From contig OZ250169.1 in the NCBI GenBank assembly GCA_965237955.1, positions 8,032,001 to 8,096,000 on the forward strand: a stretch of DNA of 64,000 bases, given 5' to 3'. Of this stretch, positions 18,961 to 53,399 are shown in pieces; position 1 is the stretch's first letter, and the number at the start of each line of letters is the position of its first letter. The DNA comes from Candidatus Marinacidobacterales bacterium (lineage in GTDB: Bacteria; Acidobacteriota; Vicinamibacteria; Marinacidobacterales; SMYC01). The notes under the pieces are model-generated. The model ran no database searches. It was not told where the DNA came from and saw nothing but the letters and a program-made list of their open reading frames with translations. A program made the translations under genes and the position numbers.

Positions 18961-19386
18961 AACGCGGGTAGGCCCACAAGGTCGGGACCGGGGCATCTTC
19001 CTTCTTGGCCCAGGCCGACCGGATCATCTGCAACACCGATTCGGCGGTCGGCGCCTGCAACGCCAACGCCCGGGTTTTCTCCTTCAGCAGCCCCTCGGTT
19101 CACTGGACACGGCTTTGGCCATGCGGTAGCCGACACCCGAGGCTCGGTCACGATGTAGGCGGGGCTGGTGGCAACGTCACCCCGTCCTGTGCCAAAACTC
19201 GGCCCATTTGAAATAGACCACAAATCAGCAGCTTAGACGCTCTTGGAATCCGCGCAGAATCGAGGGTATTTCGCGCCGCAGGGCTGGCTCAAATCGGCTG
19301 CGGGGCGAGCTACGGGCAGTGAACTGCGCACCCGGAAGTCTCTGATTAGACTGGACTTTACCGGGCAGAAGAGCGAACGTTCGGTG

Positions 19387-19818
19387 ATGCCGCAGGATAC
19401 AGGGGTTGGGCGGAACGTCGTTCTGGACGGTTTGGACTTCGCCAGCTTGCGGCGGGTCTGGGAGCAGACCTTTGGGGCAGCTCCGCCAAGCTCGCTCTCG
19501 CGTATCTTCATGCGCCGCGTTCTCTTGCACGAACGCCAGTGCCGGACCCATGGCGGGCTTTCGGCCGCAACCCGGCGCGCTCTGGCCGCTATGGCGAACG
19601 AGACACCAGGCAACGCCGCTCCCGCAGGGTCCGTTTCTGCCGGCACCCATATCGTCCGCGAGTGGAATGGCCGGACCTACCAGGTCGAGGTAGTCGACAA
19701 CGGCTATCGGTTCGATGGCAAAACCTATCCGTCCCTCACCGCCATCACAAAGCGAATCACCGGCACCCACTGGTCAGGACCACGCTTTTTCGGTCTCACG
19801 CCCAAGCGCAAGGCCTAA
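19387..19818 (+). CDS. DUF2924 domain protein
   Basis: GT..VREWNG..Y.V, Y.SL..I...ITGTHWSGPRFFGL. Confidence 0.85.
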   Translation: MPQDTGVGRNVVLDGLDFASLRRVWEQTFGAAPPSSLSRIFMRRVLLHERQCRTHGGLSAATRRALAAMANETPGNAAPAGSVSAGTHIVREWNGRTYQVEVVDNGYRFDGKTYPSLTAITKRITGTHWSGPRFFGLTPKRKA

Positions 19819-19819
19819 C

Positions 19820-21481
19820 ATGAAGAAGATCCGCTGTGCCATCTATACGCGAAAGAGTGCGGAAGAGGGTCTCGAACAGGAGTTCAACTCCCTCGATGCG
19901 CAGCGAGAAGCCTGCGCCGCGTATGTCGCGAGCCAGAAAGCGGAGGGCTGGGTGCTGCTGCCAACTGTCTACGAGGACGCGGGGCTCTCGGGAGGAACCC
20001 TGGAGCGCCCGGGCCTGCAGCGCTTGCTCGCCGACATCGACGCAGGTCTCGTCGACCAGATTGTGGTCTACAAGGTCGACCGGCTGACCCGTTCCCTCTC
20101 CGACTTTGCAAAGCTCGTCGAGCGGCTCGAGGCGGCCGGCGCGGTTTTCGTCTCGGTGACTCAGTCCTTCAACACCGCGACCAGCATGGGACGACTGACG
20201 CTGCATATGCTGCTGTCCTTCGCACAATTCGAACGCGAGGTCACGGCCGAGCGGATCCGCGATAAGGTCGCTGCCTCCAAGCGCAAGGGACTATGGATGG
20301 GCGGCCGCGTACCGCTCGGCTATGAGAAGGACGGGCGCACGCTGCGCATCAACGAGGCTGAGGCCGAAACGGTCCGGACGCTCTATGCGCTGTACCGAAA
20401 GCACGAAACGCTCCGGCAGGTGAAGGCCGAGGCGGACCGTCTGAGACTGCGTACCAAGCAACGCTTCACCGCGGATGGAACCCGAACGGGCGGGCTGCCG
20501 TTCCGTCGCGGACACCTCCACTGCCTGCTGACCAATCCTCTCTACGCCGGCCGCATCCGGCACCAGAGGCGTGTCTACGAGGGCCAGCATCCATCGATCA
20601 TTGCTCCGGAGCTCTGGGACGCGGTCCAAACGCAGCTGCAGGCAGGGGCTGCCAAACCAAGGAGACGCACGACGAAGGGCCGTGCCGCCCGTTCCCCACT
20701 GGCAGGCAAGCTCTTCGACGAGACCGGGGACCGGCTGACGCCGAGCCACACCAAAAAGAAAAACGGGCAACGGCTCCGCTACTACGTCTCCCGGCGCCTC
20801 ATCCAGCACAGTGGCCAAAAGGACCTCTCCGGCTGGCGACTGCCCGCCCCGATGCTGGAACAGACCGTCGTGCATCTCATCCGACAGCATGTGGATGCCA
20901 CGACCTTCTCGGCCTCGTTGATCCACACTCCGACGATGCAAGAGCTCGCCTCGGTGCGTCGCTTTTTAGACGGGCTGTGTTCCGGTAGTAACAATGATAG
21001 TGCCTCGGCAGCCCCCCTGCTCCGTCTTATCCGGCGGGTCGACATCAGCCCCGGCTCTGTGTCCATCCTGCTCGACCGCGATGCGTTCGCTGCTTGCCTC
21101 TCTATGGGACCCGAACGCATTCGCGACGATGCACTCCGCATCCTCGCACCGTTCCGCTTGCGTCGACGCGGCGTCGAGACCAAGCTCGTTCTGGGCAACC
21201 CCACGAAATCCGTCGACCGCACACTCCTGCGCAATATCAGAAACGCCCTCTCCTGGCTCGACCGAATCAAAGCAGGCAAAACCTATGAGCAGATTGCCAC
21301 CGAACACGCCATCCCAACGGACCGCGTGCGCAAGGCAATCCGTTATGCCTTCCTGGCTCCCGACATCGTCCGCGCCATTGTCGAAGGCCGCCAGCCCGTT
21401 GGGCTGACCTCGAGCTACCTCTTGCATCATCCGCTTCCCGACGATTGGGAGAAACAGCGAGTGCTCGTCAAAACGCTGTGA
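19820..21481 (+). CDS. Large serine recombinase
   Basis: CAIYTRKS catalytic Ser, SG...ERP, DRLTR, FERE...ERI, LTNP.Y.G recombinase domain. Confidence 0.92.
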   Translation: MKKIRCAIYTRKSAEEGLEQEFNSLDAQREACAAYVASQKAEGWVLLPTVYEDAGLSGGTLERPGLQRLLADIDAGLVDQIVVYKVDRLTRSLSDFAKLVERLEAAGAVFVSVTQSFNTATSMGRLTLHMLLSFAQFEREVTAERIRDKVAASKRKGLWMGGRVPLGYEKDGRTLRINEAEAETVRTLYALYRKHETLRQVKAEADRLRLRTKQRFTADGTRTGGLPFRRGHLHCLLTNPLYAGRIRHQRRVYEGQHPSIIAPELWDAVQTQLQAGAAKPRRRTTKGRAARSPLAGKLFDETGDRLTPSHTKKKNGQRLRYYVSRRLIQHSGQKDLSGWRLPAPMLEQTVVHLIRQHVDATTFSASLIHTPTMQELASVRRFLDGLCSGSNNDSASAAPLLRLIRRVDISPGSVSILLDRDAFAACLSMGPERIRDDALRILAPFRLRRRGVETKLVLGNPTKSVDRTLLRNIRNALSWLDRIKAGKTYEQIATEHAIPTDRVRKAIRYAFLAPDIVRAIVEGRQPVGLTSSYLLHHPLPDDWEKQRVLVKTL

Positions 21482-23054
21482 GCCTGCCAGCGCCCACTCC
21501 GTGAATGGGCTCGGTTAGCAGCAAGCTGCTCTCCGACACTGGCCTCCACCAATCAGCCTCAAACTGGCCCCAATTCCCTGTCATGGTTTCCAGACTCGGA
21601 TAGCTCCTTGTACTGGACCGTCTGCGGAGTCATCTTCGTTTCCTCCGTAAAACTCCGCTGGATGAATTCGAGGTTTGGCCAATTCGAATTCCGCTATTCG
21701 CCTTCTCCTCAGGCGCGATCTAGGCGTTAAGCGTCTTCTCATTGTCTGCGCGATTAAGCGCAAAAACGTCCCGATAAGCCCCAAAATCGCCCCAAACTGC
21801 ACGTTAATGGCCTGTTGTGCTCTGTTTCTGATCGTTTCCAGCCAAGAATCGGAAGCTCCACTCAAGCCTCCCGACTGCGATAGCCGGAAAGATGTTCCCG
21901 TCGACGAATATTCGCTGATGAGACGTAAAGCTTTTTATAACAATGAGTAACGGCCGGCGGTGGCGCCGGAGGGTTCACGACACGACCTTCTTTCAGGCGT
22001 CCGGGAGATTGAAATTGCCGTATAGAAAATCTTACTAAAGCCAATTAAAATCCCGGCTCGAACGACCACCCGTCGATAATGCGTGCGGGGACCAGCACGT
22101 GACGGAGGCCGTTAAATCACTGTAGGGGAAGAGGATGGAACGAAATGGGCAGCATGGTTGAAACCCGAGAGGGCGTAAAACAGCCTTCTCCCAAAACCTG
22201 TGTACGCGTCAAGAAAGTCAAGAAATGCGCGAAACTCGAAACCTCCTAAATCTCCACTTATTTTTCTCTTTGAGGATTTCCGCCAAAAGCTGGACCGCCT
22301 TTTGCCGAGACCGGATAGCTCCAAACTGCACCATCCGCCACCCAGTCTGGCCAATTGCGGCCCCGCAGAGACGGGTGGGATTTCCCGCGCGGTTGGCGGG
22401 GTTTTGCAGAGGTAGGTGGCACCAGAGACGCGCTATAAGGGCTGAACAGGCCTCATTTTCGGTATTGGTCTCTAATCTCGATTTTCGAGTGCCACGTTTG
22501 CGCTAAAGGGGAGAACGGGCGCTGACCGGGCCGTGCGGCGGCGGAAAAGAGGCCACCCGAGAAGCCCAGAATCGAAGCCGGGGATACCGCAGCGTAGCTC
22601 GCCTAGCACGTTCTGGTCCAGGTGCGGCCCTGGCCTACTGGATTTCCATCTTGTCCCAGGCCCGGATCCAGGGTCTTCGCCCGGGAGCATGGCATCCCGT
22701 TTCTGGACGTTGTTTCCCAGTACGGGGGAACCCGAATTGCTTGCCGCAATGTCACCCTTCTAGGGCATTGGTGTCACCTCGTTCGAATAGGCGAGGATTT
22801 CCACAACCGCCTAGGGGTCAGCCCTGGCGTTCAGAACAATAGGCCAGAGATTCGGAAACGGTTGCAAGAGCGAGCACTGGTAATGTCCTAAGATTCTTGT
22901 CAAAGAAAAACGATGTATGGTTCCCAGGTCTCACAACCCTCCCCGGAATGGGGACAGAAACGGAGAACCATACATCATGGGGAAAGTACTACCGAGTCAG
23001 CGATTGCTCAAGCAGTTCGAGGAACGACTGGTTTACCCATCAATGTAAAGTAGT

Positions 23055-24548
23055 CTACAACGCTGGCTTGCGTTCAATCTTGAAGGTGAAAGCATGCTCG
23101 CAAGGCTTTTTGTCCGGGGTTTTGATTGTAAGGCCGTCTTCAGTCATCGTCCATTCCAGTTCTTCATCAACACCAAGCATCTTTATGGATTCGATCTCCG
23201 ATTCATATAATCTAAATTCTGCGCCAGGAGGTAATCCAACGCCAGCCAGGAATTTAATGGTAACCTCATCTCCTGGCCAATCGAGACTAATCGCATAGAT
23301 GACGTTATCCTTGACCGTAAACCTGATATCCTGAGCTGTATATAGGGGTTTCTTCCCCTCCCCGAGACCAGAATCACTTACCTTTGTAGGACCTTCTCCA
23401 TGTCTTATCCAAGCCGTGGTACCATAAATCGCTTCGCCGTTTACCTTCAGCCATTCGCCCAACCCCAGCAGACTTTTCTTGGCCTCTTCAGGGATCGTTC
23501 CATCAGGTTTGGGACCAACATTGAGTAAAACAAACCCATTCTTGCTGACTCTATCCACCAGAAGATCCACCAGCCTATTTACCGGTTTGAAGTTTGAGTC
23601 CTCAACCCAAGACCATGCGCCCTGGTCATCTACAGAGGGATCCGACATCCACATGTGATATGTCACCTGGGTTTTTCCCCCTGAGTTCTCGATACCAACG
23701 CCGGGCGGAAAATCATGAACTTTGTATGACAGTAAAACTTCCTTGCCGCGTTCAACGGATTTGTTGTAGTAATAGGCCAGAAAGTTCTTTTGATAAACAT
23801 CTTTCCTTACTCCATCCAGAGGAGAGTCAAACCATATAAAGTCGGGATCATATTTATCTACAACTTCTATTATTTTCCCGTACCATTCATCTAAGTACTC
23901 CTCGTTGGGCTCTTCTCCCCTCTCGTGTATCTGGCCGTATAATCCCGAATACTTCGGATCGGAACAGTCGAATCTCTCGTCCCATACCGGAAACTTGTAC
24001 CATTTCGAGGAATGGTGGAATGTCGTTACGAATTTCATGTTGCGTTTTTTTATGGCTTTTTCTAACTCCCCGACGACATCTCTTTTCGGTCCCATCTTCG
24101 CAGCATTCCATTCTGAGTACTCGGTATCCCACATTGCGAAGCCATCTTGATGCTCTGCGACTGGACCGGCGAATTTTGCGCCAGCCTTTTCGAAAAGCTC
24201 TGCCCATTCGTCAGCATCGAACTTCTCTGCCTTAAACATAGGTATAAATTCCTTGTATCCGAATTCCGAGAGAGAACCATATGTTTCTACATGGTGTTTA
24301 TGCTGTTTGGAATCTTCACGATACATTTCACCGGGATACGATGTACCATCGGGACCCCCCATGGCTGGTACCGAATAAACTCCCCAATGTGTATAAATTC
24401 CAAACTTGCCATCTTTTACCCACTGCGGGACTGGATAGCGTTTTAGAGATCTCCAGGTAGGTTCATAGGTTTCCTCGGCCAATAACAAACCTGTCGCCAT
24501 TATCACTACAGCCAATACCGCTGCCGATACAATCGACTTTCTTAACAT
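23055..24548 (-). CDS. Alpha-L-fucosidase (GH29), secreted
   Basis: KFGIY.HWG.YSVP, EHQDGF..W, PDFIWFD, LLNVGP..DG; visibly lower GC than flanks. Confidence 0.92.
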   Translation of the reverse strand: MLRKSIVSAAVLAVVIMATGLLLAEETYEPTWRSLKRYPVPQWVKDGKFGIYTHWGVYSVPAMGGPDGTSYPGEMYREDSKQHKHHVETYGSLSEFGYKEFIPMFKAEKFDADEWAELFEKAGAKFAGPVAEHQDGFAMWDTEYSEWNAAKMGPKRDVVGELEKAIKKRNMKFVTTFHHSSKWYKFPVWDERFDCSDPKYSGLYGQIHERGEEPNEEYLDEWYGKIIEVVDKYDPDFIWFDSPLDGVRKDVYQKNFLAYYYNKSVERGKEVLLSYKVHDFPPGVGIENSGGKTQVTYHMWMSDPSVDDQGAWSWVEDSNFKPVNRLVDLLVDRVSKNGFVLLNVGPKPDGTIPEEAKKSLLGLGEWLKVNGEAIYGTTAWIRHGEGPTKVSDSGLGEGKKPLYTAQDIRFTVKDNVIYAISLDWPGDEVTIKFLAGVGLPPGAEFRLYESEIESIKMLGVDEELEWTMTEDGLTIKTPDKKPCEHAFTFKIERKPAL

Positions 24549-24744
24549 TTCTTCCTCCTATTTGTTTCAGATTAAGGTATCAATGGATTGAATTAAACTT
24601 ATTTCATGCTTTTAACAATGTTAAGGATAGGAAATTTCATGGCCCATTGAGAAGCGTGTTCCTCCAATTTCCTCGGCTTGCATGCGGCTCAGCGAGTCTA
24701 TTGAAGCTCGCTGAGGATATCAGGTCGTAGGGATCTTTGAAGCC

Positions 24745-25368
24745 CGTAGTGTGCCAAAACTCAACCGGCGCGAAGCAGAGTGGCGTTGGGTGACGTTTTC
24801 TAAGAGCAAGAGTAGTGCCAGTGCTCCGCGCGGCTAGAATGCGGTCTATGCAGTCCCACCTATGGCAGCTCCTCGCGTTGACCTTCGCAGGGTGAGTCAA
24901 CCGGTCCCAGCAGGATGTAATCGAATACCTGAAGGAAGAGAATCGAGTGCTCCGGGAGCAGCTCGGTGCTCGTCGCATACGTTTCACGGATGATCAGCGT
25001 CGGCGCCTGGCAGCGAAGGCGAAGGCCATGTGCCGGGACAACCTGAAGGAAATCGCGGACCTCGTGACACCTGACACATTGTTGCGCTGGTACAGAGAGC
25101 TCATTGCAACAAAGTACGATGGGAGCCAGCGCCGCGGTCCAGGGCGACCTCGCGTGATGGAAACGATACGTGAGCTCGTGCTCACGATGGCGAAGGAAAA
25201 CTCAAGCTGGGGATATACGAGAATTTGTGGGGCTCTCGCCAACATGGGCCATGAGGTCGGCAGAAACACCGTGAAACGTATCCTCGCGGAACACGGTATC
25301 GAGCCCGCACCCGTGAGGGACAAACGCACTCCCTGGAGCACCTTTCTGAAAGCCCATTGGGGAGCTAT
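24745..25368 (+). mobile_element. Third subfamily (CGTAG end) of the integrase-core element; pseudogene truncated by IS21
   Basis: CGTAGTGTGCCAAAACT end; [27 protein letters not shown]; internal TGA near 24893. Confidence 0.82.
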
Positions 25369-27692: not shown

Positions 27693-29120
27693 CGTCCTGT
27701 GCCAAAACTCGGCCCTTTTGAAATAGGCCATAAATCAGCAGCTTAGTGTCTGTGTTTGCGCCGGGGCCAAGGGCCGTAGGCTTTACAATCGTCTGGCCCG
27801 AGGGTGTTATCTTCAGATCCATGATGACGTACCACGTGCAATTCCTACTGCTCGTTCTAGCTGGCTGGGTCAACCGCCAGCAGCAGGATGTGATCGACTA
27901 CCTGCAAGAGGAGAACCGTGTGCTCCGAGCCGGGCTTCGGGGCAAGCGTCTCAGTCTCTCGGACGACGACCGGCGCAGGCTCGCGGTCAAGGCCCAGGCT
28001 TTGGGCCGCGAGGCGCTGGCCCAGATTGCGTCCGTTGCCACACCCGCTACGCTTCTGCGCTGGTACCGCCACCTCATTGCAGCCAAGTACGATGGCAGCA
28101 AGAACCGGAGTCCAGGCCGACCTCCGACGGCGAAGGACATCCGTGAGCTCATTGTGCGCGTGGCGCGGGAGAACCCGACGTGGGGATATACGCGCCTGCG
28201 AGGCGCACTCAAGAACCTAGGACATGAACTCGGACGCAACACTATCAAGAGGATCCTCGCCGAGCACGGTATCGCGCCTGCGCCGGAGCGGGGCAGGAGC
28301 ATGTCGTGGAGCACCTTCATCAAGGCTCATTGGGGCGCCATCGCTGCGACAGACCTGTTCGCCGTCGAGGTTGTGAACCCGTTCGGGCTCGTCCGCTACC
28401 ATGTCCTGTTTGTCATCGATATCGCCACTCGCTGCGTGTGCATCGGTGGGATAACGTCGGACCCCAACGGGGAGTGGATGAAGCAGGTGGCAAGAAACCT
28501 CACTGACATGTGGGATGGTTTCCTCCTTGGCAAGCGATACCTCATCCACGACCGGGACCCGCTATTCACCGAGGCGGTACGTGGGCTGTTGAGAGATTCA
28601 GGCGTGAAGCCCCTGCGCCTTCCAGCCAATAGTCCAAATCTGAACGCATACGCGGAAAGATTCGTTCTCTCCATACGTCGAGAGTGTCTCGACCGCTTCG
28701 TACCTCTCAGTGAGCGACACCTGCGCACAGCGGTAACCGAATACGTAGTGCACTATCACACAGAACGGAACCACCAAGGTCTCGGCAACGAGCTCCTCAC
28801 ACCTCTGCCGGCAAGCGCGAATGACGCTGGCCCCATCGTGTCGCGAGAGCGACTTGGGGGCATTCTCAACTACTACTGCCGTGCCGCGTAGATGGTCGCC
28901 GGCGACGGTAGCCCCTCGGCGGGATCGACCGGCGTAGCGTGGAAACAGCTTCAGGAACACGCTTCGATATTCGCTCTCGACTAGGTGGTCATCTGCATGG
29001 TGACGACCCGCCCGCCCAAGACGATTGTAAAGCCCACGGCCCTTGACCCGGTCGCAAACACAGACACTAAGTTGCTGATTTATGGCCTATTTCAAAAGGG
29101 CCGAGTTTTGGCACAGGACG
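27693..29120 (+). mobile_element. Complete CGTCC-type integrase-core IS with about 100-bp inverted repeats, no TSD
   Basis: 27693-27792 is the near-perfect inverse of 29021-29120; flanks are GACCC and GGGTC. Confidence 0.88.
27821..28891 (+). CDS. Integrase-core (rve) DDE transposase, IS481-like/unclassified
   Basis: ATDLF, IHDRD, NAYAERF triad; WGYTR HTH; R.HQGL. Confidence 0.88.
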
Positions 29121-29426: not shown

Positions 29427-30509
29427 CTATGCGGCGTCGCGGTGGTAATAGCTGAGCAAGCCGCCCAATCGCTTACGACATCGCACCTTCCCGTGAGGAC
29501 TGCCGACGCATTCTTCCGCTTCGAGCAACGCGTTCCCGAGCCCTTGATGGTTGCGCTCTCCGTGATAATGATGGATGAACTCAGCGACGGCACGGCGCAG
29601 CGATTGCTCACTGAAGAAGATCATCCGCTCCAAGCACTCGCTCTTGATCGACAAAACAAACCTTTCGACGTAAGCGTTCAGATTCGGCGAACGGTGCGGC
29701 AGCCGCATGACGTCCGTTCCGGCGTGCTCGAGCAAATCGCGAAACTCCGTGGTGAACTTCTTGTCGCGGTCCAAGATGAGGAATCGCTTGCCGCGCAGAA
29801 AGCCGTCGAATGGGTCGGTGAGATTCCGACCGACCTGCATCATGAACGGGCCAACCGGCCCCGGAGTGATTCCGGCGATGTGTACTTTTCGCGAAGACAG
29901 CTCGATGACGACGAGCACATAGTAGGTCACGAGCCTGCAAACTGTGGCGACCTCGACGGTGAAGAAGTCGGTCGCAGCAACGGTTTCCCAATGGGCGGCG
30001 AGAAACGTGCGCCATGGCGTTCGCTCACTTCGCTCCGGCGCGGGCTCGATGCCATGTTCTCGCAGAATATTGGCGATGGTGCTCCTGGCTACCGTATGGC
30101 CGAGATTCGAGAGGGCGCCGCGAATGCGTGTATACCCCCACCTCGGATTCGACTTCGCCATCCCTACGACAAGCTTGCTAATCTCGGCCATGACCCGGGG
30201 CCGTCCAGGCTGTTTCCGCCGCTCGCTGTAGTCCCACTTCCCCGCAATCAGCCTTCGGTGCCAAGCCAGCAGGGTTTCCGGTGTGACGATACCGGCGACT
30301 TCTGCCAAGAGTTTCCGACCAAGCGCCTTACCCTTTACCGCGAGCCGACGTCGCTCGTCGTCTGTGAGACGAAGCTTCCTCCCGCAAAGCCGAGCTTTGA
30401 GGACTTTGTTCTCCTCGAGCAAGTAGAAAATAGCGGCCTGTTGGTCACGCTGGAGCCAACCAGCGACGGCGACGACCAACAAGGTCAAGGGCTGGACCGG
30501 CGTGCTCAT
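29427..30509 (-). CDS. Integrase-core DDE transposase
   Basis: ATDFF, ILDRD, NAYVERF; paralog of 27821-28891. Confidence 0.88.
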   Translation of the reverse strand: MSTPVQPLTLLVVAVAGWLQRDQQAAIFYLLEENKVLKARLCGRKLRLTDDERRRLAVKGKALGRKLLAEVAGIVTPETLLAWHRRLIAGKWDYSERRKQPGRPRVMAEISKLVVGMAKSNPRWGYTRIRGALSNLGHTVARSTIANILREHGIEPAPERSERTPWRTFLAAHWETVAATDFFTVEVATVCRLVTYYVLVVIELSSRKVHIAGITPGPVGPFMMQVGRNLTDPFDGFLRGKRFLILDRDKKFTTEFRDLLEHAGTDVMRLPHRSPNLNAYVERFVLSIKSECLERMIFFSEQSLRRAVAEFIHHYHGERNHQGLGNALLEAEECVGSPHGKVRCRKRLGGLLSYYHRDAA

Positions 30510-30548
30510 GACTGAGGATTCTAGCTCCCATTGGCCAACCAAGCCTAG

Positions 30549-30673
30549 TCCCCTGGATCTTTGATTACTATACAAAGTTAGGCTTTTCGCCAGCCCATAA
30601 GATTCATAAGATTCATGCACTTAGAATGGTTTCGGCAAGCTCTGCTTTATCTAGTTTGTTCTGATACAGGGGA
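30549..30673. mobile_element. 125-bp CTAG MITE, copy 2
   Basis: Near-identical to 8062-8186; empty allele AAGCCTAGACAC at 16831. Confidence 0.9.
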
Positions 30674-30987: not shown

Positions 30988-31941
30988 CTAGAAAAGGTAC
31001 TTTAAGTTCAGGCCGACGCCGAACATTTGGATGTCGCCGACCTCAAGGCCGCCCGACACAGGCTCGCTGCCATCCCTGCGAAGATTGGGCGGGTGGCTGC
31101 GCAGTGGATCCCAGACAATACTGTCGTCGTTTCGAAAAGAATGAAAGTTAACCCAGCGTCCCTTAACCCCGAGCAGTAATGCCTCCGTGAGCGCGTAGTC
31201 CACACCAAATAATACCTGGTAGCCGAACAGCGTATCGCTGAGCACGGTCTGTGCGCTGCTAGTCGATCCGGCAAGGGTCTGACGGATCTGCTCCACATTG
31301 TCTAGCCCCTCCCCGGTCGTGATCGCATTCGCATCAAGGTTCCTCTGCCACAGGGAACCATAATCCATATTGGTAAACCCGGTGCCCACACCAACCCCGA
31401 CATACGGCGTAAGCCGGCTAGCGTTCTTAAAATCGAAATACAGGTTGGCAAACAAGTTGTGCGAGGTAAGGCTGCCGATGCGGTCTGTGGCTACCTGGAG
31501 TTCCTGGGCGAGCTTGTCACCGGAGGCTCCAGTGGCCCCGGGAATATCGGAAGTTTGGTCATGGCCGGTGTCACGGTAGAAGTATTCCAGTTCAAAACGG
31601 AAGGAGTTATCCGCGAAGCGATAGCCGAGCGCCATACCGAACAGAGGGCCCTTGGCGGAATCGAATGCGTTTTGCCAATCGTCACCCTGACCGCGATTTG
31701 CGCCGGTGCAGTTGTAGTTCTCGTACCCCAGAGTGCCCATGACTGTATCGAACGCAGGGTTGATGTATTCGTCACACACACTCGCCCGGTCGTTGCTGAA
31801 TCCGACCATATCCAACGACGAGCCGAAATTCGCTCCCCACTCGCTGCCGAAATAGAACCCCGATTGGGCGTGCGCCGGGGTGCCTATCCAGAATGTAATG
31901 AAGATAACTATCAAAATTACGGACTGGAAAAACTTGTTCAT
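30988..31941 (-). CDS. Outer-membrane beta-barrel protein (opacity/Msp2-like)
   Basis: Signal peptide, FRFELEY, NLYFDF, PYVGVGVG, terminal LKYLF. Confidence 0.82.
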   Translation of the reverse strand: MNKFFQSVILIVIFITFWIGTPAHAQSGFYFGSEWGANFGSSLDMVGFSNDRASVCDEYINPAFDTVMGTLGYENYNCTGANRGQGDDWQNAFDSAKGPLFGMALGYRFADNSFRFELEYFYRDTGHDQTSDIPGATGASGDKLAQELQVATDRIGSLTSHNLFANLYFDFKNASRLTPYVGVGVGTGFTNMDYGSLWQRNLDANAITTGEGLDNVEQIRQTLAGSTSSAQTVLSDTLFGYQVLFGVDYALTEALLLGVKGRWVNFHSFRNDDSIVWDPLRSHPPNLRRDGSEPVSGGLEVGDIQMFGVGLNLKYLF

Positions 31942-31995
31942 GAAGTCCCTCTCACTTTTGTCGAAATACTCATGCGTACATTGTACCGCGCCCGG

Positions 31996-32916: not shown

Positions 32917-32922
32917 GGAACG

Positions 32923-32973: not shown

Positions 32974-34629
<1,656 letters not shown>

Positions 34630-34645
34630 TTAAAATACCTCCAAG

Positions 34646-34936
34646 CTATTCCACGATGCCGAGTACGTCGTCCTCTTTAAGGATGAGGTACTCAGTTCCG
34701 TCCAGTTTCACTTCCGAGCCCGAGTACTTGCCGATGAGCACTCTGTCGCCCACCTTCACCTCAAGCGCAACCTTCTCTCCGTCCTTCAAGGTCCGGCCCG
34801 ATCCGATAGCTATGACTTCGGCCGTCATCGGCTTTTCCTTCGCGGTGTCGGGGATGATGATAGACCCGACGTTCTTCTCGTCCCTCTCCTCGATCCGCTT
34901 TACGACAATGTTGTCCTTTATCGGTGTGATCTTCAT
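34646..34936 (-). CDS. groES: Co-chaperonin GroES
   Basis: IIIPDTAKEKP, VKVGD, KYSG.EV. Confidence 0.97.
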   Translation of the reverse strand: MKITPIKDNIVVKRIEERDEKNVGSIIIPDTAKEKPMTAEVIAIGSGRTLKDGEKVALEVKVGDRVLIGKYSGSEVKLDGTEYLILKEDDVLGIVE

Positions 34937-35494: not shown

Positions 35495-35881
35495 TCGTAC
35501 GAGATAGTAGTTATTTGGTACTTTCGAGTGAACGAACGATTTCGGTCACTCCCCGATGACCTCCGCCCACGCGGGCGGTGCCATTGCTGTCAAGTTTTCC
35601 ACGGCCTGACGGCCACCCCGTCCTGTGCCAAAACTCAGCCCTTTTGAAATAGACCACAAATCAGCAGCTTAGACGCCCTTGGAATCCGCGCAGAATCGAG
35701 GGTATTTCGCGCCGCAGAGCTGGCTTCCGACCCCTGGGCTGCGGGTGGCGAGCGACAGGCCACCGGGGGTGCGCACGGCTGGCTCAAATCGGCTGCGGGG
35801 CGAGCTACGGGCAGTGAACTGCGCACCCGGAAGTCTCTGATTAGACTGGACTTTACCGAGCACAAGAGCGAACGTTCGGTG

Positions 35882-36313
35882 ATGCCGCAGGATACAGGGG
35901 TTGGCCGGAACGTCGTTCTGGACGGTTTGGACTTCGCCAGCTTGCGGCGGGTCTGGGAGCAGACCTTTGGGGCAGCTCCGCCAAGCTCGCTCTCGCGTAT
36001 CTTCATGCGCCGCGTTCTCTTGCACGAACGCCAGTGCCGGACCCATGGCGGGCTTTCGGCCGCAACCCGGCGCGCTCTGGCCGCTATGGCGAACGAGACA
36101 CCAGGCAACGCCGCTCCCGCAGGGTCCGTTTCTGCCGGCACCCATATCGTCCGCGAGTGGAATGGCCGGACCTACCAGGTCGAGGTAATCGACAACGGCT
36201 ATCGGTTCGATGGCAAAACCTATCCGTCCCTCACTACCATCGCAAAGCGAATCACCGGCACCCACTGGTCTGGACCACGCTTTTTCGGTCTCACGCCCAA
36301 GCGCAAGGCCTAA
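35882..36313 (+). CDS. DUF2924 domain protein
   Basis: Near-identical to 19387-19818. Confidence 0.85.
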   Translation: MPQDTGVGRNVVLDGLDFASLRRVWEQTFGAAPPSSLSRIFMRRVLLHERQCRTHGGLSAATRRALAAMANETPGNAAPAGSVSAGTHIVREWNGRTYQVEVIDNGYRFDGKTYPSLTTIAKRITGTHWSGPRFFGLTPKRKA

Positions 36314-36314
36314 C

Positions 36315-37976
36315 ATGAAGAAGATCCGCTGTGCCATCTATACGCGAAAGAGTGCGGAAGAGGGTCTCGAACAGGAGTTCAACTCCCTCGATGCGCAGCG
36401 AGAAGCCTGCGCCGCGTATGTCGCGAGCCAGAAAGCGGAGGGCTGGGTGCTGCTGCCAACCGTCTACGAGGACGCGGGGATCTCGGGAGGAACCCTGGAG
36501 CGCCCGGGCCTCCAGCGCTTGCTCGCCGACATCGACGCAGGTCTCGTCGACCAGATTGTGGTCTACAAGGTCGACCGGCTGACCCGTTCCCTCTCCGACT
36601 TTGCAAAGCTCGTCGAGCGGCTCGAGGCGGCCGGCGCGGTTTTCGTCTCGGTGACTCAGTCCTTCAACACCGCGACCAGCATGGGACGACTGACGCTGCA
36701 TATGCTGCTGTCCTTCGCACAATTCGAACGCGAGGTCACGGCCGAGCGGATCCGCGATAAGGTCGCTGCCTCCAAGCGCAAGGGACTATGGATGGGCGGC
36801 CGCGTACCGCTCGGCTATGAGAAGGACGGGCGCACGCTGCGCATCAACGAGGCTGAGGCCGAAACGGTCCGGACGCTCTATGCGCTGTACCGAAAGCACG
36901 AAACGCTCCGGCAGGTGAAGGCCGAGGCGGACCGTCTGAGACTGCGTACCAAGCAACGCTTCACCGCGGATGGAACCCGAACGGGCGGGCTGCCGTTCCG
37001 TCGCGGACACCTCCACTGCCTGCTGACCAATCCTCTCTACGCCGGCCGCATCCGGCACCAGAGGCGTGTCTACGAGGGCCAGCATCCATCGATCATTGCT
37101 CCGGAGCTCTGGGACGCGGTCCAAACGCAGCTGCAGGCAGGGGCTGCCAAACCAAGGAGACGCACGACGAAGGGCCGTGCCGCCCGTTCCCCACTGGCAG
37201 GCAAGCTCTTCGACGAGACCGGGGACCGGCTGACGCCGAGCCACACCAAAAAGAAAAACGGGCAACGGCTCCGCTACTACGTCTCCCGGCGCCTCATCCA
37301 GCACAGTGGCCAAAAGGACCTCTCCGGCTGGCGACTGCCCGCCCCGATGCTGGAACAGACCGCCGTGCATCTCATCCGACAGCATGTGGATGCCACGACC
37401 TTCTCGGCCTCGTTGATCCACACTCCGACGATGCAAGAGCTCGCCTCGGTGCGTCGCTTTTTAGACGGGCTGTGTTCCGGTAGTAATGATGATAGTGCCT
37501 CGGCAGCCCCCCTGCTCCGTCTTATCCGGCGGGTCGACATCAGCCCCGGCTCTGTGTCCATCCTGCTCGACCGCAATGCGTTCGCTGCTTGCCTCTCTAT
37601 GGGACCCGAACGCATTCGCGAGGATGCACTCCGCATCCTCGCACCGTTCCGCTTGCGTCGACGCAGCGTCGAGACCAAGCTCGTTCTGGGCAACCCCACG
37701 AAATCCGTCGACCGCACACTCCTGCGCAATATCAGAAACGCCCGCTCCTGGCTCGACCGAATCAAAGCAGGCAAAACCTATGAGCAGATTGCCACCGAAA
37801 ACGCCATCCCAACGGACCGCGTGCGCAAGGCAATCCGTTATGCCTTCCTGGCTCCCGACATCGTCCGCGCCATTGTCGAAGGCCGCCAGCCCGTTGGGCT
37901 GACCTCGAGCTACCTCTTGCATCATCCACTTCCCGACGATTGGGAGAAACAGCGAGTGCTCGTCAAAACGCTGTGA
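36315..37976 (+). CDS. Large serine recombinase
   Basis: Near-identical to 19820-21481. Confidence 0.92.
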   Translation: MKKIRCAIYTRKSAEEGLEQEFNSLDAQREACAAYVASQKAEGWVLLPTVYEDAGISGGTLERPGLQRLLADIDAGLVDQIVVYKVDRLTRSLSDFAKLVERLEAAGAVFVSVTQSFNTATSMGRLTLHMLLSFAQFEREVTAERIRDKVAASKRKGLWMGGRVPLGYEKDGRTLRINEAEAETVRTLYALYRKHETLRQVKAEADRLRLRTKQRFTADGTRTGGLPFRRGHLHCLLTNPLYAGRIRHQRRVYEGQHPSIIAPELWDAVQTQLQAGAAKPRRRTTKGRAARSPLAGKLFDETGDRLTPSHTKKKNGQRLRYYVSRRLIQHSGQKDLSGWRLPAPMLEQTAVHLIRQHVDATTFSASLIHTPTMQELASVRRFLDGLCSGSNDDSASAAPLLRLIRRVDISPGSVSILLDRNAFAACLSMGPERIREDALRILAPFRLRRRSVETKLVLGNPTKSVDRTLLRNIRNARSWLDRIKAGKTYEQIATENAIPTDRVRKAIRYAFLAPDIVRAIVEGRQPVGLTSSYLLHHPLPDDWEKQRVLVKTL

Positions 37977-38307
37977 GCCTGCCAGCGCCCACTTCGTGAA
38001 TGGGCTCGGTTAGCAGCAAGCTGCTCTCCGACACTGGCCTCCACCAATCAGCCTCAAACTGGCCCAAATTCCCTGTCATGGTTTCCAGACTCGGATAGCT
38101 CCTTGTACTGGACCGTCTGCGGAGTCATCTTCGTTTCCTCCGTAAAACTCCGCTGGATGAATTCGAGGTTTGGCCAATTCGAATTCCGCTATTCGCCCTC
38201 TCCTCAGGCGCGATCTAAGCATTGAGCGTCTTCTCATTGTCTGCGCGATTAAGTGCAAAAAACGACACCATAAGCCCTAAAATCGCACAAAATTGCACGC
38301 TAAGGGT

Positions 38308-39392
38308 GCCTTGGTGCACAACTCGCGATCTCGGTCCACAATTGTCCTTTACTCACGGATTCGAGGTTCCCCATGAGCATTTTCAAACGCACTCAGCGGA
38401 AGTATGTGAAGAAGGCCTATCGCGTGAGGAATTGGCGTGAATATGAGGCGGGTCTACGCAACCGTGGGAGCCTGACCGTCTGGATCTCGCTCACCGCCGG
38501 CAAGCTTGTGAACTGGGACGCGCCCCGGCCGAGGAGGAGGAAACCGGGCCGTCAACGCAAGTACTCGAACCACGCCATCGAGACGGCTGTCACCCTGGGC
38601 ATGGTGTTTCATCTGTCATCTAGGCAGAGCGAGGGATTGCTGCGATCGTTGTTCGCTCTGATGAAGCTAGACAATGATGTGCCCGATCACACCACGATTT
38701 CGAGGCGCAAGGCGAAGCTGGGTAAGGTCCCCTTCTACCAAGACAAGCAGAAGACGCCGTTGCACATCTTGATCGACAGCAGCGGTCTCGCTGTCCACGC
38801 CGGCCAGCTGCGCAGAGCACCAAAGAGCAGGGACTATCGCAAGCTCCATCTGTGTGTCGACGAGCAGAGTGGCGAAGTCGTCGCCGGCGAGCTGACGAGC
38901 AAAAGAGCCCGCGATTCATCGCGGGTTGCATCGCTTGTCGGACAGATCGACAGTCCCATCTCATCTGCCAGAGCTGACACCGCATACGACGCCAGCGGCG
39001 TCTATGAGGCGATCGAGAATCACAGCGCTCATCGCTCGCCGAGGGTGCTAATACCGCCGCGCAAGGGCGCCCAGCTCGCATCGGGGCCGGCGAGCAGCCG
39101 ACAGCGCAATCGCAACATTGCAGCACAAGCTCGGCTCGGCAAACGAAAGTGGCACACAGAATCGGGCTACAGCAAACGGAGCAAAGTCGAGACAACGTTC
39201 CATCGCTACAAGGCTATCGTGGGCTCAGCGATGCGAGCGAGAGGGTTGGCGGCACAGAGAGTCGAGGCAAGGATCGGGTGCAAGATTCTCAACACCATGA
39301 CGGCGCTCGGGATGCCTGATAGCGAGATGATCGGATGATGGGAGTCGGGGCCAAGCGAGCTATCGGCCTCTATCGGAGTTGTGCACCAAGGC
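38308..39392 (+). mobile_element. IS5-family (IS903 group) element; transposase 38373-39338
   Basis: Perfect IR GCCTTGGTGCACAACTC; NW.EY..L..RGSLT.W, IDSSGL, AD.AYD, Y.KRS.VE; no TSD seen. Confidence 0.9.
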
Positions 39393-39816
39393 AGAAAAGC
39401 ACTTCACTTCCTGGCTTACCCTCGCGCCCAATAACAAAATCTCCGGCGGGCGACTCCTCAGCTCGAAAACACAACCCTCTGCAAACCGCGCCGCTGGCAT
39501 TCTCCGCATGGCCGCACTCAGCCTCGGGCGTACACAGACCGCTCTCGGCGCCTACTATCGACGTCTCGCCTATCGCGTCGGTAAATCCCAAAGCCATCAC
39601 CGCCACCGCTCGAAAGCTCGCCATTCTCGTCTACCGCACTCTCAAGGATGGGCTCGTCTATCAAGACCCCGGGGCCGCCGCCTACAACGCTCAAGATCGC
39701 TCCCGTGCCGTGCGCCGCCTGACCCAACGCGCCGCTGACCTCGGTTTCGCTCTCATCGACACTCAAACGGGCGACGTCGTTCAGGCGGTAGTTTCTTAGG
39801 AGAATGGGCTTGACTC
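39393..39816 (+). mobile_element. IS110 3' fragment (frameshifted)
   Basis: Matches the reverse complement of 49780-50200. Confidence 0.85.
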
Positions 39817-45785: not shown

Positions 45786-45854
45786 TCTGGCGAGGGCGTG
45801 GGCCTAGTTGTCCCCGTCGCCGTGCGCCATCTTGATTGCGAAGGTTGGATTACC

Positions 45855-46205
45855 TCAAGCTTTGCGCAGCCGCTTCACCGCAAGCACCACCAGAACCAGC
45901 GCCAGGATCAAAAGACCGAACATGAGCCCGGGGCTCATCCCGGTCTCCGCTGCCGCCGCCTCATCCGTTTCAGCGGTGGACTCTGCCATTTCTTCTACCG
46001 ATTCGGCAGCCGAGTCCGCCATCTCCCCTGCTGCCTCGACCGGCGAATCCGCCATCTCGCCAGCAGCCTCAGCGGCTTCCCCAGCGGCGTCGGTTACCGC
46101 TTCCGATTCCTGCACGGCCTCCGATTCCTGCGCGGCGATGGCGTGGGTGAAACCCACTATCAACATAAGAGTTGCGATCGCAGCGAAACCAAAGATTCTC
46201 TTCAT
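45855..46205 (-). CDS. Small acidic repeat surface protein with C-terminal TM anchor
   Basis: Signal peptide, EAAGEMADS repeats, TM helix + KRLRKA. Confidence 0.75.
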   Translation of the reverse strand: MKRIFGFAAIATLMLIVGFTHAIAAQESEAVQESEAVTDAAGEAAEAAGEMADSPVEAAGEMADSAAESVEEMAESTAETDEAAAAETGMSPGLMFGLLILALVLVVLAVKRLRKA

Positions 46206-46263
46206 CGCTCCCCCCTAATAGAACCCAACAATGCCATATATACAAAATGTGAGAACGATGCAA

Positions 46264-48768
<2,505 letters not shown>

Positions 48769-48873
48769 GATTGCCAATCAGACCAAGAGGAGGGCCTTGA
48801 TGCCCGAGGCTTGGCGCTGGTACACCCAGCGGCACCTTCGTCGGAGAATTTCTCAACTTCTACACAAATCTTA

Positions 48874-49371
48874 CTACTTGATCATCGAGAAAATGATCGA
48901 AGGCACCAATGGTTCACCGGCCGGCTGGATAGCTTCAATGCATAGGTTCGCCTCTGAATTATTAGCTGACATCATGACTTCTACAACATCACCCGCCTTC
49001 AGTGGGACGATTCCCTGCGATATGATGACGTCTTTCGCCCTGCTGTCGGCATCCTGACACAGCTGTACGTTGGAGTTCGCTACATCATCTCCATTAACAC
49101 GTAGCCATAAATCGAAGCAACCATAGGGTCCTCCACCTTCGCGTCCCACTTGGGGTGCAGCGACTATCAGATAGGGTCCGGCTTCACTTACAGTGATTTT
49201 GTTGTCTTTTAGGGCAAGGCCATTGGCTGCATCCGTGACATCCATTTTAACGACCACGGGTGCATTGCCGGGGCACTGGGTAATCGTTGAGGATGCCTGC
49301 AAATACTGGTCGGCGTTTGCCATACTCATGGATGTCAATAATACAAACACTGTAGAGATAATCTTCTTCAT
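48874..49371 (-). CDS. Secreted C1q/BclA-CTD-like jelly-roll protein
   Basis: Signal peptide; ITV..AG.YLI, LWLRVNG, L.AGDVVEV. Confidence 0.6.
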   Translation of the reverse strand: MKKIISTVFVLLTSMSMANADQYLQASSTITQCPGNAPVVVKMDVTDAANGLALKDNKITVSEAGPYLIVAAPQVGREGGGPYGCFDLWLRVNGDDVANSNVQLCQDADSRAKDVIISQGIVPLKAGDVVEVMMSANNSEANLCIEAIQPAGEPLVPSIIFSMIK

Positions 49372-49779
49372 GCTCTTGCGCTCCTTTTCAGTCCAGGTCA
49401 AAGCTTTTTGGGCATTCAGCTCAGCCAGTCGGGCAGGCGGTCCCCCTGACACCTGACGATGGCTTGCCGGTCAACTAAGTCAGTACAAGTAGAGTACTTT
49501 AGCAGAATTTATGGCGTAGTCAAAGGATGCTGGGCAGGTCGTAGGTGCAAACTGCTGACCCGCTGGGCCTTCGCGTATTTTGACCAGACGGGTTTTGGCG
49601 CTTTTGGCGCAGGATCTATTCGGTCGCAGCTCCGGAGCTCGTGTTTGTGGGTGTCCATTCGAGTCTGGAGAGACGGTTTCCCGAAGAGTTCGGACGCCGG
49701 GTCGAGAACGCCAGACCGGAGACTAATCAAGTTCGGTGCGCGCGGATGAATAAATAGAAGGCACAGGTACCAGCGCAGG

Positions 49780-50943
49780 AGTCAAGCCCATTCTCCTAAG
49801 AAACTACCGCCTGAACGACGTCGCCCGTTTGAGTGTCGATGAGAGCGAAACCGAGGTCAGCGGCGCGTTGGGTCAGGCGGCGCACGGCACGGGAGCGATC
49901 TTGAGCGTTGTAGGCGGCGGCCCCGGGGTCTTGATAGACGAGCCCATCCTTGAGAGTGCGGTAGACGAGAATGGCGAGCTTTCGAGCGGTGGCGGTGATG
50001 GCTTTGGATTTACCGACGCGATAGGCGAGACGTCGATAGTAGGCGCCGAGAGCGGTCTGTGTACGCCCGAGGCTGAGTGCGGCCATGCGGAGAATGCCAG
50101 CGGCGCGGTTTGCAGAGGGTTGTGTTTTCGAGCTGAGGAGTCGCCCGCCGGAGATTTTGTTATTGGGCGCGAGGGTAAGCCAGGAAGTGAAGTGCTTTTC
50201 AGTAGGCCATCGGTTCATATCGGTACCGATCTCGGCGAGCAAGCGAAGCGCGGAATAGGGTCCGATGGCGTCGATCTGGGAGAGGTCGACCCCGGCGATC
50301 TGGTGGAGGAGAGGCCGGAGCTCGAACCGAGGTTCGTTCACTCGGGGCTTGCGCGATTTTCGAGGCGGTGGCAAGGAGGTGTTCGGGGTTGAGCGTTGAG
50401 CTAGAAGCTGCAGGTGCGATTCGATGGCCACGTCACAGGTTTGGATCTGGAGCTGAAAAGCATCAAAGAGTTCGAGGTTCTGCTTGAGAGCGAAGAGGTG
50501 CTCGGGGCGATAGTTGCCGGTGAGTGCAGCGGCGATCTCGGCCTCGGAGGACTGACAACGGTGGTCACGGTGCTTAGCGAGCCGATGGGGGTCGGTTTGT
50601 CCGGCAACGATGTCTCGTAGAATCCGCATGCCAGTGACACCCGTGATATCAGTGACCACAAGGTGGAGTTGAAGATTCATTTGCACGAGAGCCTTCTGCA
50701 TGCGCTGGATATGGGTTACCGCACTCTGAACGAGAGTCTCTCGGTGGCGGAGGTAGCCACGCAGGGCGGTGATGGCTGCTTCGGGTCGAAAGCTTCCGCG
50801 GAGCAACCCCACGCTGTGCAACTCCCGGAGCCATTCGCAATCGCTGACATCGCTCTTGCGCCCCGGGACGTTTTTGACGTGGCGCGCGTTGACCAAGAGG
50901 ACCTGGAAGCCACGGGCTTCGAGGATTTCATACAGGGCGATCC
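49780..50943 (-). mobile_element. IS110-family recombinase, 5'-truncated by the LSR unit end
   Basis: LVNARHVK.VPGRKSD..D, IG..SA..L.AEIG, SWL.L.P....SGG, A.ARKLA. Confidence 0.9.
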
Positions 50944-53399
50944 CGTCCTGTGCCAAAACTCGGCCCTCTTGAAATAGACCACAAATCAGCAGCTTAGACG
51001 CCCTTGGAATCCGCGCAGAATCGAGGGTATTTCGCGCCGCAGGGCTGGCTTCCGACCCCAGAGCTGCGGGTGGCGAGCGACAGGCCCACCGGGGGTGCGC
51101 ACGGCTGGCTCAAATCGGCTGCGGGGCGAGCTACGGGCAGTGAACTTCGAACCCGGAAGTCCCTCATTAGACTGGACTTTATCGAGCACAAGAGCGAACG
51201 TTCGGTGATGCCGCAGGATACAGGGGTTGGCCGGAACGTCGTTTTGGACGGTTTGGACTTCGCCAGCTTACGGCGGGTCTGGGAGCAGACCTTTGGGGCT
51301 GCTCCTCCAAGCTCGCTCTCGCGTGTTTTCCTGCGCCGCGTTCTCTTGCACGAACGCCAGTGCCGGACCCATGGCGGGCTTTCGGCCGCAACCCGGCGCG
51401 CTCTGGCTGCCATGGCGAACGAGACACCAAGCCCCGGCGCTCCCGCAGGGTCCGTTTCTGCCGGCACCCATCTCGTCCGCGAGTGGAATGGCCGGACCTA
51501 CCAGGTCGAGGTACTCGACAACGGCTATCGGTTCGATGGCAAAACCTATCCGTCCCTCACTACCATCGCAAAGCGAATCACCGGCACCCACTGGTCTGGA
51601 CCACGCTTTTTCGGTCTCACGCCCAAGCGCAAGGCCTAACATGAAGAAGATCCGCTGTGCCATCTATACGCGAAAGAGTGCGGAAGAGGGTCTCGAACAG
51701 GAGTTCAACTCCCTCGATGCGCAGCGAGAAGCCTGCGCCGCGTATGTCGCGAGCCAGAAAGCGGAGGGCTGGGTGCTGCTGCCAACTGTCTACGAGGACG
51801 CGGGGCTCTCGGGAGGAACCCTGGAGCGCCCGGGCCTACAGCGCTTGCTCGCCGACATCGATGCCGGTCTCGTCGAGCAGATCGTGGTCTACAAGGTCGA
51901 CCGGCTGACCCGTTCCCTCTCCGACTTTGCAAAGCTCGTCGAGCGGCTCGAGGCAGCCGGCGCGGTTTTCGTCTCGGTAACTCAGTCCTTCAACACCGCG
52001 ACCAGCATGGGACGACTGACGCTGCATATGCTGCTGTCCTTCGCACAATTCGAACGCGAGGTCACGGCCGAGCGGATCCGCGATAAGGTCGCTGCCTCCA
52101 AGCGCAAGGGACTATGGATGGGCGGCCGCGTACCGCTAGGCTATGAGAAGGACGGGCGCACGCTGCGCATCAACGAGGCTGAGGCCGAAACGGTCCGGAC
52201 GCTCTATGCGCTGTACCGGAAGCACGAAACGCTCCGGCAGGTGAAGGCCGAGGCGGACCGTCTGAGACTGCGTACCAAGCAACGCTTCACCGCGGATGGA
52301 ACCCGAACGGGCGGGCTGCCGTTCCGTCGCGGACACCTCCACTGCCTGCTGACCAATCCTCTCTACGCCGGCCGCATCCGGCACCAGAGGTGTGTCTACG
52401 AGGGCCAGCATCCATCGATCATTGCTCCGGAGCTCTGGGACGCGGTCCAAACGCAGCTGCAGGCAGGGGCTGCCAAACCAAGGAGACGCACGACGAAGGG
52501 CCGTGCAGCCCCCTCCCCACTGGCAGGCAAGCTCTTCGACGAGACCGGGGACCGGCTGACGCCGAGCCACACCAAAAAGAAAAACGGGCAACGGCTCCGC
52601 TACTACGTCTCCCGGCGCCTCATCCAGCACAGTGGCCAAAAGGACCTCTCCGGCTGGCGACTGCCCGCCCCGATGCTGGAACAGACCGTCTTGCATCTCA
52701 TCCGACAGCATGTGGATGCCACGACCTTCTCGGCCTCGTTGATCCACACTCCGACGATGCAAGAGCTCGCCTCGGTGCGTCGCTTTTTAGACGGGCTGTG
52801 TTCCGATACTAATGATGATAGTGCCTCGGCAGCCCCCCTGCTCCGTCTTATCCGGCAGGTCGATATCAGCCCCGGCTCTGTGTCCATCCTGCTCGACCGC
52901 AATGCGTTCGCTGATTGCCTGTCTATGGGACCTGACCGCATTCGCGAGGATGCACTCCGCATCCTCGCACCGTTCCGCTTGCGCCGACGCGGCGTCGAGA
53001 CCAAGCTCGTTCTGGGCAACCCCACGAAATCCGTCGACCGCACACTCCTGCGCAATATCAGAAACGCCCTCTCCTGGCTCGACCGAATCAAAGCAGGCAA
53101 AACCTATGAGGAGATTGCCACCGAAAACGCCATCCCAACGGACCGCGTGCGCAAGGCAATCCGTTATGCCTTCCTGGCTCCCGACATCGTCCGCGCCATT
53201 GTCGAAGGCCGCCAGCCCGTTGGGCTGACCTCGAGCTACCTCTTGCATCATCCGCTTCCCGACGATTGGGAGAAACAGCGAGTGCTCGTCAAAACGCTGT
53301 GAGCCTGCCAGCGCCCACTTCGTGAATGGGCTCGGTTAGCAGCAAGCTGCTCTCCGACACTGGCCTCCACCAATCAGACTCAAACTGGCCCAAATTCCC
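50944..53399 (+). mobile_element. DUF2924 + large serine recombinase unit, copy 3 (3' flank cut by a CGTCC-type IS)
   Basis: DUF2924 51208-51639; most diverged of the three copies. Confidence 0.8.
51641..53302 (+). CDS. Large serine recombinase
   Basis: Near-identical to the other two copies, frame intact. Confidence 0.92.
   Translation: MKKIRCAIYTRKSAEEGLEQEFNSLDAQREACAAYVASQKAEGWVLLPTVYEDAGLSGGTLERPGLQRLLADIDAGLVEQIVVYKVDRLTRSLSDFAKLVERLEAAGAVFVSVTQSFNTATSMGRLTLHMLLSFAQFEREVTAERIRDKVAASKRKGLWMGGRVPLGYEKDGRTLRINEAEAETVRTLYALYRKHETLRQVKAEADRLRLRTKQRFTADGTRTGGLPFRRGHLHCLLTNPLYAGRIRHQRCVYEGQHPSIIAPELWDAVQTQLQAGAAKPRRRTTKGRAAPSPLAGKLFDETGDRLTPSHTKKKNGQRLRYYVSRRLIQHSGQKDLSGWRLPAPMLEQTVLHLIRQHVDATTFSASLIHTPTMQELASVRRFLDGLCSDTNDDSASAAPLLRLIRQVDISPGSVSILLDRNAFADCLSMGPDRIREDALRILAPFRLRRRGVETKLVLGNPTKSVDRTLLRNIRNALSWLDRIKAGKTYEEIATENAIPTDRVRKAIRYAFLAPDIVRAIVEGRQPVGLTSSYLLHHPLPDDWEKQRVLVKTL

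Follow-up and report, generated by a model that had tools for sequence, protein, structure and literature searches.

Why would a bacterial chromosome carry three near-identical large serine recombinase (LSR) genes within 64 kb, each headed by the end of a DDE-type insertion sequence (IS)? This question arises in a 64-kb stretch of DNA (hereafter the window) that covers positions 8,032,001–8,096,000 of the single 8.13-Mb contig of a Candidatus Marinacidobacterales bacterium (Acidobacteriota), our source genome G000. A sequence-only reading of the window had described three units, each pairing a DUF2924 gene with an LSR gene, and had proposed that they are two-recombinase hybrids, one option being a non-autonomous transposon moved in trans. 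This proposal is supported by two properties of the units, namely an inverted second end of their own and a target preference of the IS type. We consider it likely, from comparisons of genome sequences, that the unit is a 3.5-kb cassette that would be moved in trans by an IS transposase and whose LSR would recombine an internal attP-like site with the 3′ ends of tRNA-Ser genes. Throughout, G-numbers denote individual genomes, L-numbers denote loci, and X2 and X11 are sequencing runs read as contigs.

The three units do start at a shared IS terminus (19183, 35619, and 50944), on the same strand and with unrelated left flanks, and the DUF2924 and LSR reading frames are intact in all of them. Pairwise identity among the three is 96.1–97.7%. 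An assembly artefact is excluded: the copies are 2–5% divergent, have different flanks, and are present in independent assemblies. The real element is about 3.5 kb long and consists of an IS481/IS3-like left end, the DUF2924 gene, the LSR gene, an attP-like site, and a second IS end. In copy 1, where all features lie on the plus strand, the left end (19183–19247) is a terminal repeat common to the probable helper IS and includes a 13-mer (19223–19235) that we take to be similar to the IHF consensus. Next come the DUF2924 gene (19384–19818; 144 aa, PF11149) and the LSR gene (19820–21481; 553 aa, with Resolvase and Recombinase domains and an intact catalytic Ser12 motif), which begins at an ATG at 19820, 36315, and 51641 in the three copies. 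A shortened repeat arm (21572–21600), which precedes the att core in other variants, is followed by the attP-like core (22307–22347) and then by the arm and the rest of the unit (22338–22740), without a right IS end. The right boundary suggested earlier, at 21805/38303, was wrong and is ruled out as the limit of the unit, as copy 1 homology runs on to about 22740 and copy 2 has an IS5-family insertion at 38306. Copy 2 (35619–38306, plus strand; DUF2924 at 35879–36313, LSR at 36315–37976) is cut before its att core by this element (38307–39393, plus strand, right limit approximate). Copy 3 (50944–53399, plus strand; DUF2924 at 51205–51639, LSR at 51641–53302) is cut before its att core by another IS end at 53399, and the downstream part is kept only in copy 1. 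The left end of copy 3 itself cuts the start of an IS110-family gene (49796–50956).

Complete units measure 3.4–3.8 kb. An inverted end closes them, in many cases one of the second type that is specific to the unit. The leader end lies 604–698 bp upstream of 15 of the 16 intact LSR genes in G000 and upstream of the LSR in 19 of 32 loci from related genomes, vs. none of 47 outside loci. The unit's own second-type end is found within 620 bp after 15 of 43 att cores. With two inverted ends around passenger genes, the unit is therefore built like a non-autonomous IS derivative. As had been reported, the leader also recurs without the recombinase, at 13172 (about 65 bp; 13172–13236, plus strand) and at 62798 (about 112 bp). 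At the second site, the leader forms the left end of a 293-bp miniature element (62798–63090) with an inverted end at 63090, and other miniature elements of about 130, 210, and 320 bp have the same ends (e.g., G000 7468977–7469105).

The terminus of the units is the inverted repeat of a 1,428-bp IS at 27693–29120 (plus strand), the probable helper, which has inverted repeats of about 107 bp and a transposase gene at 27821–28891. Its 356-aa transposase has the triad D178-D244-E279 (DD35E); G000 holds 27 distinct full-length genes of this kind, and 7 of 28 copies are frameshifted. A second helper IS copy (53400–57847, minus strand) contains nested insertions of IS256- and IS3-family elements, and a related transposase of the same family (29427–30620, minus strand) lies beside second-type ends. 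The terminus is not rare, with 501 copies in G000 at up to one mismatch and 737 ends once the second end type is included. Nearly all of these (699 of 737) cluster in islands totaling 1.86 Mb, or 23% of the chromosome. The LSR leader is present on 83 ends, which have 78 distinct 15-bp flanks. The flank next to an end reads WYCS in 392 of the 737 cases vs. 4% in the background, and the unit junctions share this target preference with the autonomous IS.

Neither the IS nor the unit is accompanied by the repeats that many transposases leave behind. Target duplications of more than 3 bp were absent from 22 of 22 full IS copies and from 194 facing end pairs, long duplications were likewise not found (to 50 bp among 512 ends and to 34 bp in the 194 facing pairs), and complete units show only a 0–1 bp repeat around their ends, like the autonomous IS. 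As controls, IS256-like full copies in G000 keep 8–11 bp repeats in 28 of 33 cases and IS21-like copies in about half; the IS5, IS3, IS110, and IS481-like rows of this comparison gave no usable control, as their boundaries had been set automatically. Among 357 ends with an uninterrupted homologue of the flank, the partner ends have no common offset. Two-ended insertion with target deletion was tried and rejected, the two flanks lying near each other in a reference copy for 10 of 48 elements vs. 12.9 expected by shuffling. Segmental duplication as the main route was ruled out for the left ends, although 155 of the 737 junctions are still common to several loci. In one Streptomyces plasmid, both ends were recognized in 4 of 25 homologous loci, and all four have a similar flank, no duplication, and no LSR. 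Because these homologues behave alike without an LSR, the lack of duplication is a property of the transposase group. For IS3, IS5, and IS481 elements, the available part of one study (PMC11708052) describes a subset of events in which adjacent DNA was deleted or the IS was inserted with no duplication. The helper IS group itself is unclassified and widespread, and it prefers a 4-bp motif beside each end (G000; L174, L178, L179, and L195).

The att-like cores that the sequence-only reading had proposed to look for do exist, inside the unit and not at the IS end; that reading had missed both the site and its tRNA-Ser targets. A conserved core stands 0.8 kb behind the LSR gene (22307–22347 in copy 1), and 7 bp of it are identical to tRNA-Ser 3′ ends. 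The crossover window is 22335–22337, and two 8-bp inverted arms each lie 6 bp from the 22335–22336 dinucleotide. In G000, the right arm of the core is fused, as in an attL junction, to a tRNA-Ser(TGA) gene (126836–126921); the junction lies at 126921, and the largest island has its first end 0.5 kb farther on. Such tRNA-Ser fusions occur in seven genomes (G000, G008, G012 twice, G015, G018, G021, and G013), involve the isoacceptors TGA, GCT, and CGA, and have arms 87–91% identical to the window's copy. A pattern search for attL-type junctions returned 6 sites in 5 of 12 genomes, and the reversed-pattern control returned none. On the attR side, 9 of 14 pattern matches run into non-element DNA, and 8 of these 9 flanks match the DNA that follows tRNA-Ser genes in other genomes (e.g., a tRNA-Gln after Ser(GCT)). 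The LSR gene is directly upstream in three attR-type junctions. In G021, both halves surround 2.6 kb; G027 has an empty site, which is syntenic with the DNA behind this insert. AttL and attR with a short common core, and an empty attB, as expected of a large serine integrase, were found. Inside the unit, breakpoints do not cluster anywhere besides the att core and a leader indel, and a pattern search of five genomes returned no further non-tRNA attR sites.

Other arrangements of the core were also observed. Att cores at G000 815854, 466732, and 483533, and about 10 further ones, have a full repeat arm and no LSR gene; they often lie 0.5 kb from a right end and are probable recombinase-less derivatives. 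At L098, L105, L106, and L110, the core runs directly into the arm of another island, starting at that arm's first base. Elsewhere this arm directly follows tRNA-Ser, and these loci read as tandem islands at one tRNA. At L099 (704–1494), a core leads straight into an array of eight tRNA genes. Core junctions at island edges with no identified partner occur in G000 at 2014189–2014225 (minus strand) and 1078780. When the tRNA-Ser(TGA) junction of G000 was compared, as a candidate partner, with the core-flank junction at 2014200, the matches were only to paralogous kinases and in the wrong orientation.

One insertion lies away from tRNA genes. In G000, both att halves bracket 32 kb (2369651–2401606) that separate a dam gene from a convergent gene; in 12 of 18 loci of relatives, these two genes are direct neighbors. 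The att overlap at this insert is 3 bp and contains the symmetry dinucleotide of the core's two 8-bp arms. The arm is at the left end of the insert and a leader-DUF2924-LSR unit, now frameshifted, is at the right end, with other DNA between them. This order is the permutation expected if a circle of one cassette plus flanking DNA integrated through the internal site. Contigs from X2 and X11 match the dam region at 99–100% identity and depart from the reference precisely at the insert base; both this comparison and the one for circle junctions were made on contigs.

The distribution of the unit and the variation among its copies bear on whether the LSR still matters to it. G000 contains 16 intact LSR copies, and LSRs 94–98% identical are found in 8 related genomes. 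The carriers of near-identical LSRs belong to Candidatus Marinacidobacterales, and the complete unit is present in several genera. Among 55 genomes of the order, the exact terminus was found in 10, patchily within genera; in the 31 that were searched for a near-identical LSR, the same 9 have both terminus and LSR. Repeats may be hidden in fragmented assemblies, but G009, in two contigs, has neither the terminus nor this LSR. G009, a family member that lacks the IS, carries instead, at tRNA-Ser(GGA) (L010/L119), a DUF2924-LSR module of 53% identity that has no IS ends and is a separate acquisition. Over 42 distinct full-length LSR copies (22 from G000), we counted 186 synonymous and 157 nonsynonymous variants, or 0.32 of the neutral ratio. 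The selection check among copies that had been proposed thus gives a ratio of nonsynonymous to synonymous polymorphism (pN/pS) of about 0.3 for the LSR (0.27–0.32, with 0.15–0.25 in the catalytic domain and 0.32 in the spectrum-corrected count), and the LSR copies are under purifying selection. The corresponding values are 0.42–0.59 for DUF2924 and 0.19–0.30 for the transposase, and recent IS21 and IS256 expansions gave 0.43–0.94 on few sites. On a tree of these mosaic copies, with no support values shown, sequences from different genomes are interleaved. An RNA-library run covers the unit, but this coverage does not show expression.

The nearest LSRs from outside Acidobacteriota come from Rhodobacteraceae (50–63% identical). 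The outside loci have DUF2924 upstream in 46 of 47 cases and the IS end there in none, a convergent tRNA lies within about 400 bp in 20 of 29 scanned, and DUF3489 is upstream in 3 of 3 tested modules. A DUF3489 match was found in none of five genomes searched, where the built-in control also matched nowhere. A tRNA-targeting element of the Rhodobacteraceae type is the probable source from which the integrase module was captured, with loss of the DUF3489 gene. DUF2924 itself is conserved and always adjoins the LSR. Its structure model (predicted local distance difference test, pLDDT, 84) has two small domains that resemble DNA-binding folds only weakly and returned no Foldseek match at E 0.001. 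In a wide structure search, the best matches were the CcrM C-terminal domain (Z 6.5) and MPND (Z 6.4), and the N-terminal part matched small SAP/LEM-like helical domains at Z 5–6, all below the tool's meaningful level. With low confidence, we take DUF2924 for a probable accessory factor that binds DNA and serves the LSR; the sequence-only reading had offered it as a possible directionality factor. In the open literature, DUF2924 turned up in three Wolbachia papers.

These footprints could be produced as follows. The transposase, acting in trans, would make the end junctions and multiply the cassette, with junctions made either one end at a time or by insertion and then adjacent deletion. DNA circles made of a cassette plus flanking DNA would be integrated by the LSR, which would place DNA with the internal site at tRNA-Ser ends and, on occasion, at other sites. 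Integration would split the cassette, with the arm left beside the tRNA and the LSR gene found at the opposite end of the insert. Movement of DNA between hosts would favor cassettes with a working LSR, keeping each copy under selection, and integration would seed IS-rich islands in new hosts. It is possible, though we hold this more tentatively and with some doubt, that the two enzymes form a gene-transfer engine, in which the transposase would join ends singly, drop the integrase-attP cassette into arbitrary DNA, and cut cargo circles, and the LSR would land these circles at tRNA-Ser in other genera, seeding islands.

Several observations count against the cassette reading. It rests on genomic footprints, and enzyme activity was not observed. 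Because there is no target duplication, no single clean whole-unit transposition event is identifiable, and most G000 units have no right end of their own. Window copies 2 and 3 lack the att core, and attL was found in none of G023, G025, and G032 (3 of 10 carrier genomes). The G000 tRNA-Ser(TGA) junction is without a proven partner, and att cores without an LSR gene exist, so another copy may have made a given junction. Contigs of four runs list no circle junction on the complete unit, and no free circle was seen. The X2 and X11 comparison shows where the contigs leave the reference and not the letters beyond that point, and the LSR variants were counted per site, without a tree, among mosaic copies.

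How far, then, can these data be explained in other ways? The lack of target duplications and of paired flanks would also be seen if the cassette were not transposable and the LSR were an active tRNA-Ser integrase whose integrative element had been joined by single IS ends and spread by one-ended rearrangement and homologous recombination. Mosaic right halves, and the many copies that end in other termini, point the same way. Yet the leader end is a dedicated one that keeps a fixed distance and has 78 distinct flanks among its 83 copies, the right end is dedicated as well, and the same complete unit is present in other genera, so we regard this explanation as unlikely. It is more improbable still that the LSR is now passive cargo, with its tRNA junctions and low pN/pS inherited from an ancestral phage-like element. 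Ten of the 42 full-length LSR copies are frameshifted and the outside relatives are already at tRNAs, as this would predict; however, arms closely matching the window's copy stand at three different tRNA-Ser genes of present hosts, singleton variants also give 0.32, and the 32-kb insert is missing in relatives and apparently in near-identical strains too.

The sequence-only reading had also raised the option that the LSR acts on the IS end, whether as a multi-target integrase that makes the end junctions with the terminus as an att arm or, in a variant we add, by resolving IS cointegrates. Serine recombination leaves no target duplication, and the shared presence of LSR unit and exact terminus in the same 9 of 31 genomes would fit. 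This option did not hold up, and we find it hardly credible: the 357 testable ends show no reciprocal junctions at a fixed offset (none consistent at offset 0–2), the crossover site is internal, breakpoint clusters inside the unit are confined to the att core and leader indel, and the four Streptomyces loci with both ends recognized contain no LSR but have the same flank preference and likewise lack a duplication.

The reading that we favor, a cassette moved in trans with an LSR that acts on its internal site, has partial precedents. Mobile insertion cassettes such as MIC231 of the Bacillus cereus group have a size range of 0.7–3 kb in the portion of the literature available (PMC6199540). As described there, MIC231 resembles our unit in having two IS ends, passenger genes, no transposase, and a cognate autonomous IS in the genome, and the size of the unit is near that range. 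Unlike MIC231, which has IS231/IS4 ends, the unit has IS481/IS3-like ends, carries a second recombination system and att site as its passenger, and shows no target duplication. The DUF3489-DUF2924-LSR modules of Proteobacteria have the same gene pair, an LSR of 43–63% identity, an att site matching tRNA 3′ ends, and no detected Cys zinc-ribbon domain, but they are single-copy and without IS ends, whereas the unit lacks DUF3489, is IS-ended and multi-copy, and has crossed into Acidobacteriota.

The helper likewise resembles IS481 and IS3 in its DD35E integrase-core transposase and terminal inverted repeats, yet differs in its long repeats, in the lack of target duplication, and in scoring far below the NCBIfam cut-offs (IS481, NF033577, 101 vs. 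224 bits; IS3, 82 vs. 160). Among annotated proteins, those closest to it are the “integrase core domain” proteins encoded on Streptomyces plasmids (34–39% identity). Members of the IS1202 family make long target duplications of about 24–28 bp; these were not found in the search to 50 bp among 512 ends and to 34 bp in facing pairs, so the helper does not fit this family. Tn4451/Tn5397 (TnpX/TndX), DUF4368 LSRs, and SCCmec Ccr are alike, in the accounts available, in LSR-driven integration and excision of a cargo element. However, Tn4451-type LSRs act at the element's own ends, whereas the LSR of the unit would act inside and the ends belong to a DDE system; an LSR transposon of the Tn4451/TnpX type does not fit the internal crossover site and the absence of reciprocal end junctions. 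The LSR gave no zinc-ribbon (PF13408) match at E 0.05 and no detectable DUF4368, and its CcrB score was 130 vs. a cut-off of 900. DUF4368 marks the different clade of multi-target LSRs, as far as the available text of one study goes (PMC10083194). The 2014 Islander database paper (PMC4383910) states, in its available part, that no targeting of tRNA genes was known for serine integrases. The available portions of later papers by the same group (PMC12424338, PMC12884075) do not address this point, and their databases or supplements may hold such islands. No IS-ended integrase-attP cassette was found in the open literature, a search that left out subscription papers and ISfinder. The cassette thus appears to be a new combination of known parts, well supported by genomic footprints.

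Other genes in the window are also duplicated. The groEL gene (32974–34936, with groES beside it) has four G000 copies at 98% identity, all in terminus-rich islands. Further cargo, present in 2–4 copies of 99–100% identity in distant islands, comprises an AhpC-like protein, an outer-membrane protein, an EEP gene pair, and a TPR protein; the duplicated cargo genes in the window lie at 13443–14201, 30988–31941, 57973–60279, and 1670–3613.

With its att halves, crossover window, and three tRNA-Ser targets already mapped, the device is directly testable, and a serine integrase at a near-universal tRNA-Ser site would be useful for genome engineering. A helper transposase group without target duplications in two phyla also calls for a mechanism. 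If our reading is true, the cassette would be a device of natural origin that makes an integrative element of whatever DNA it has landed in.

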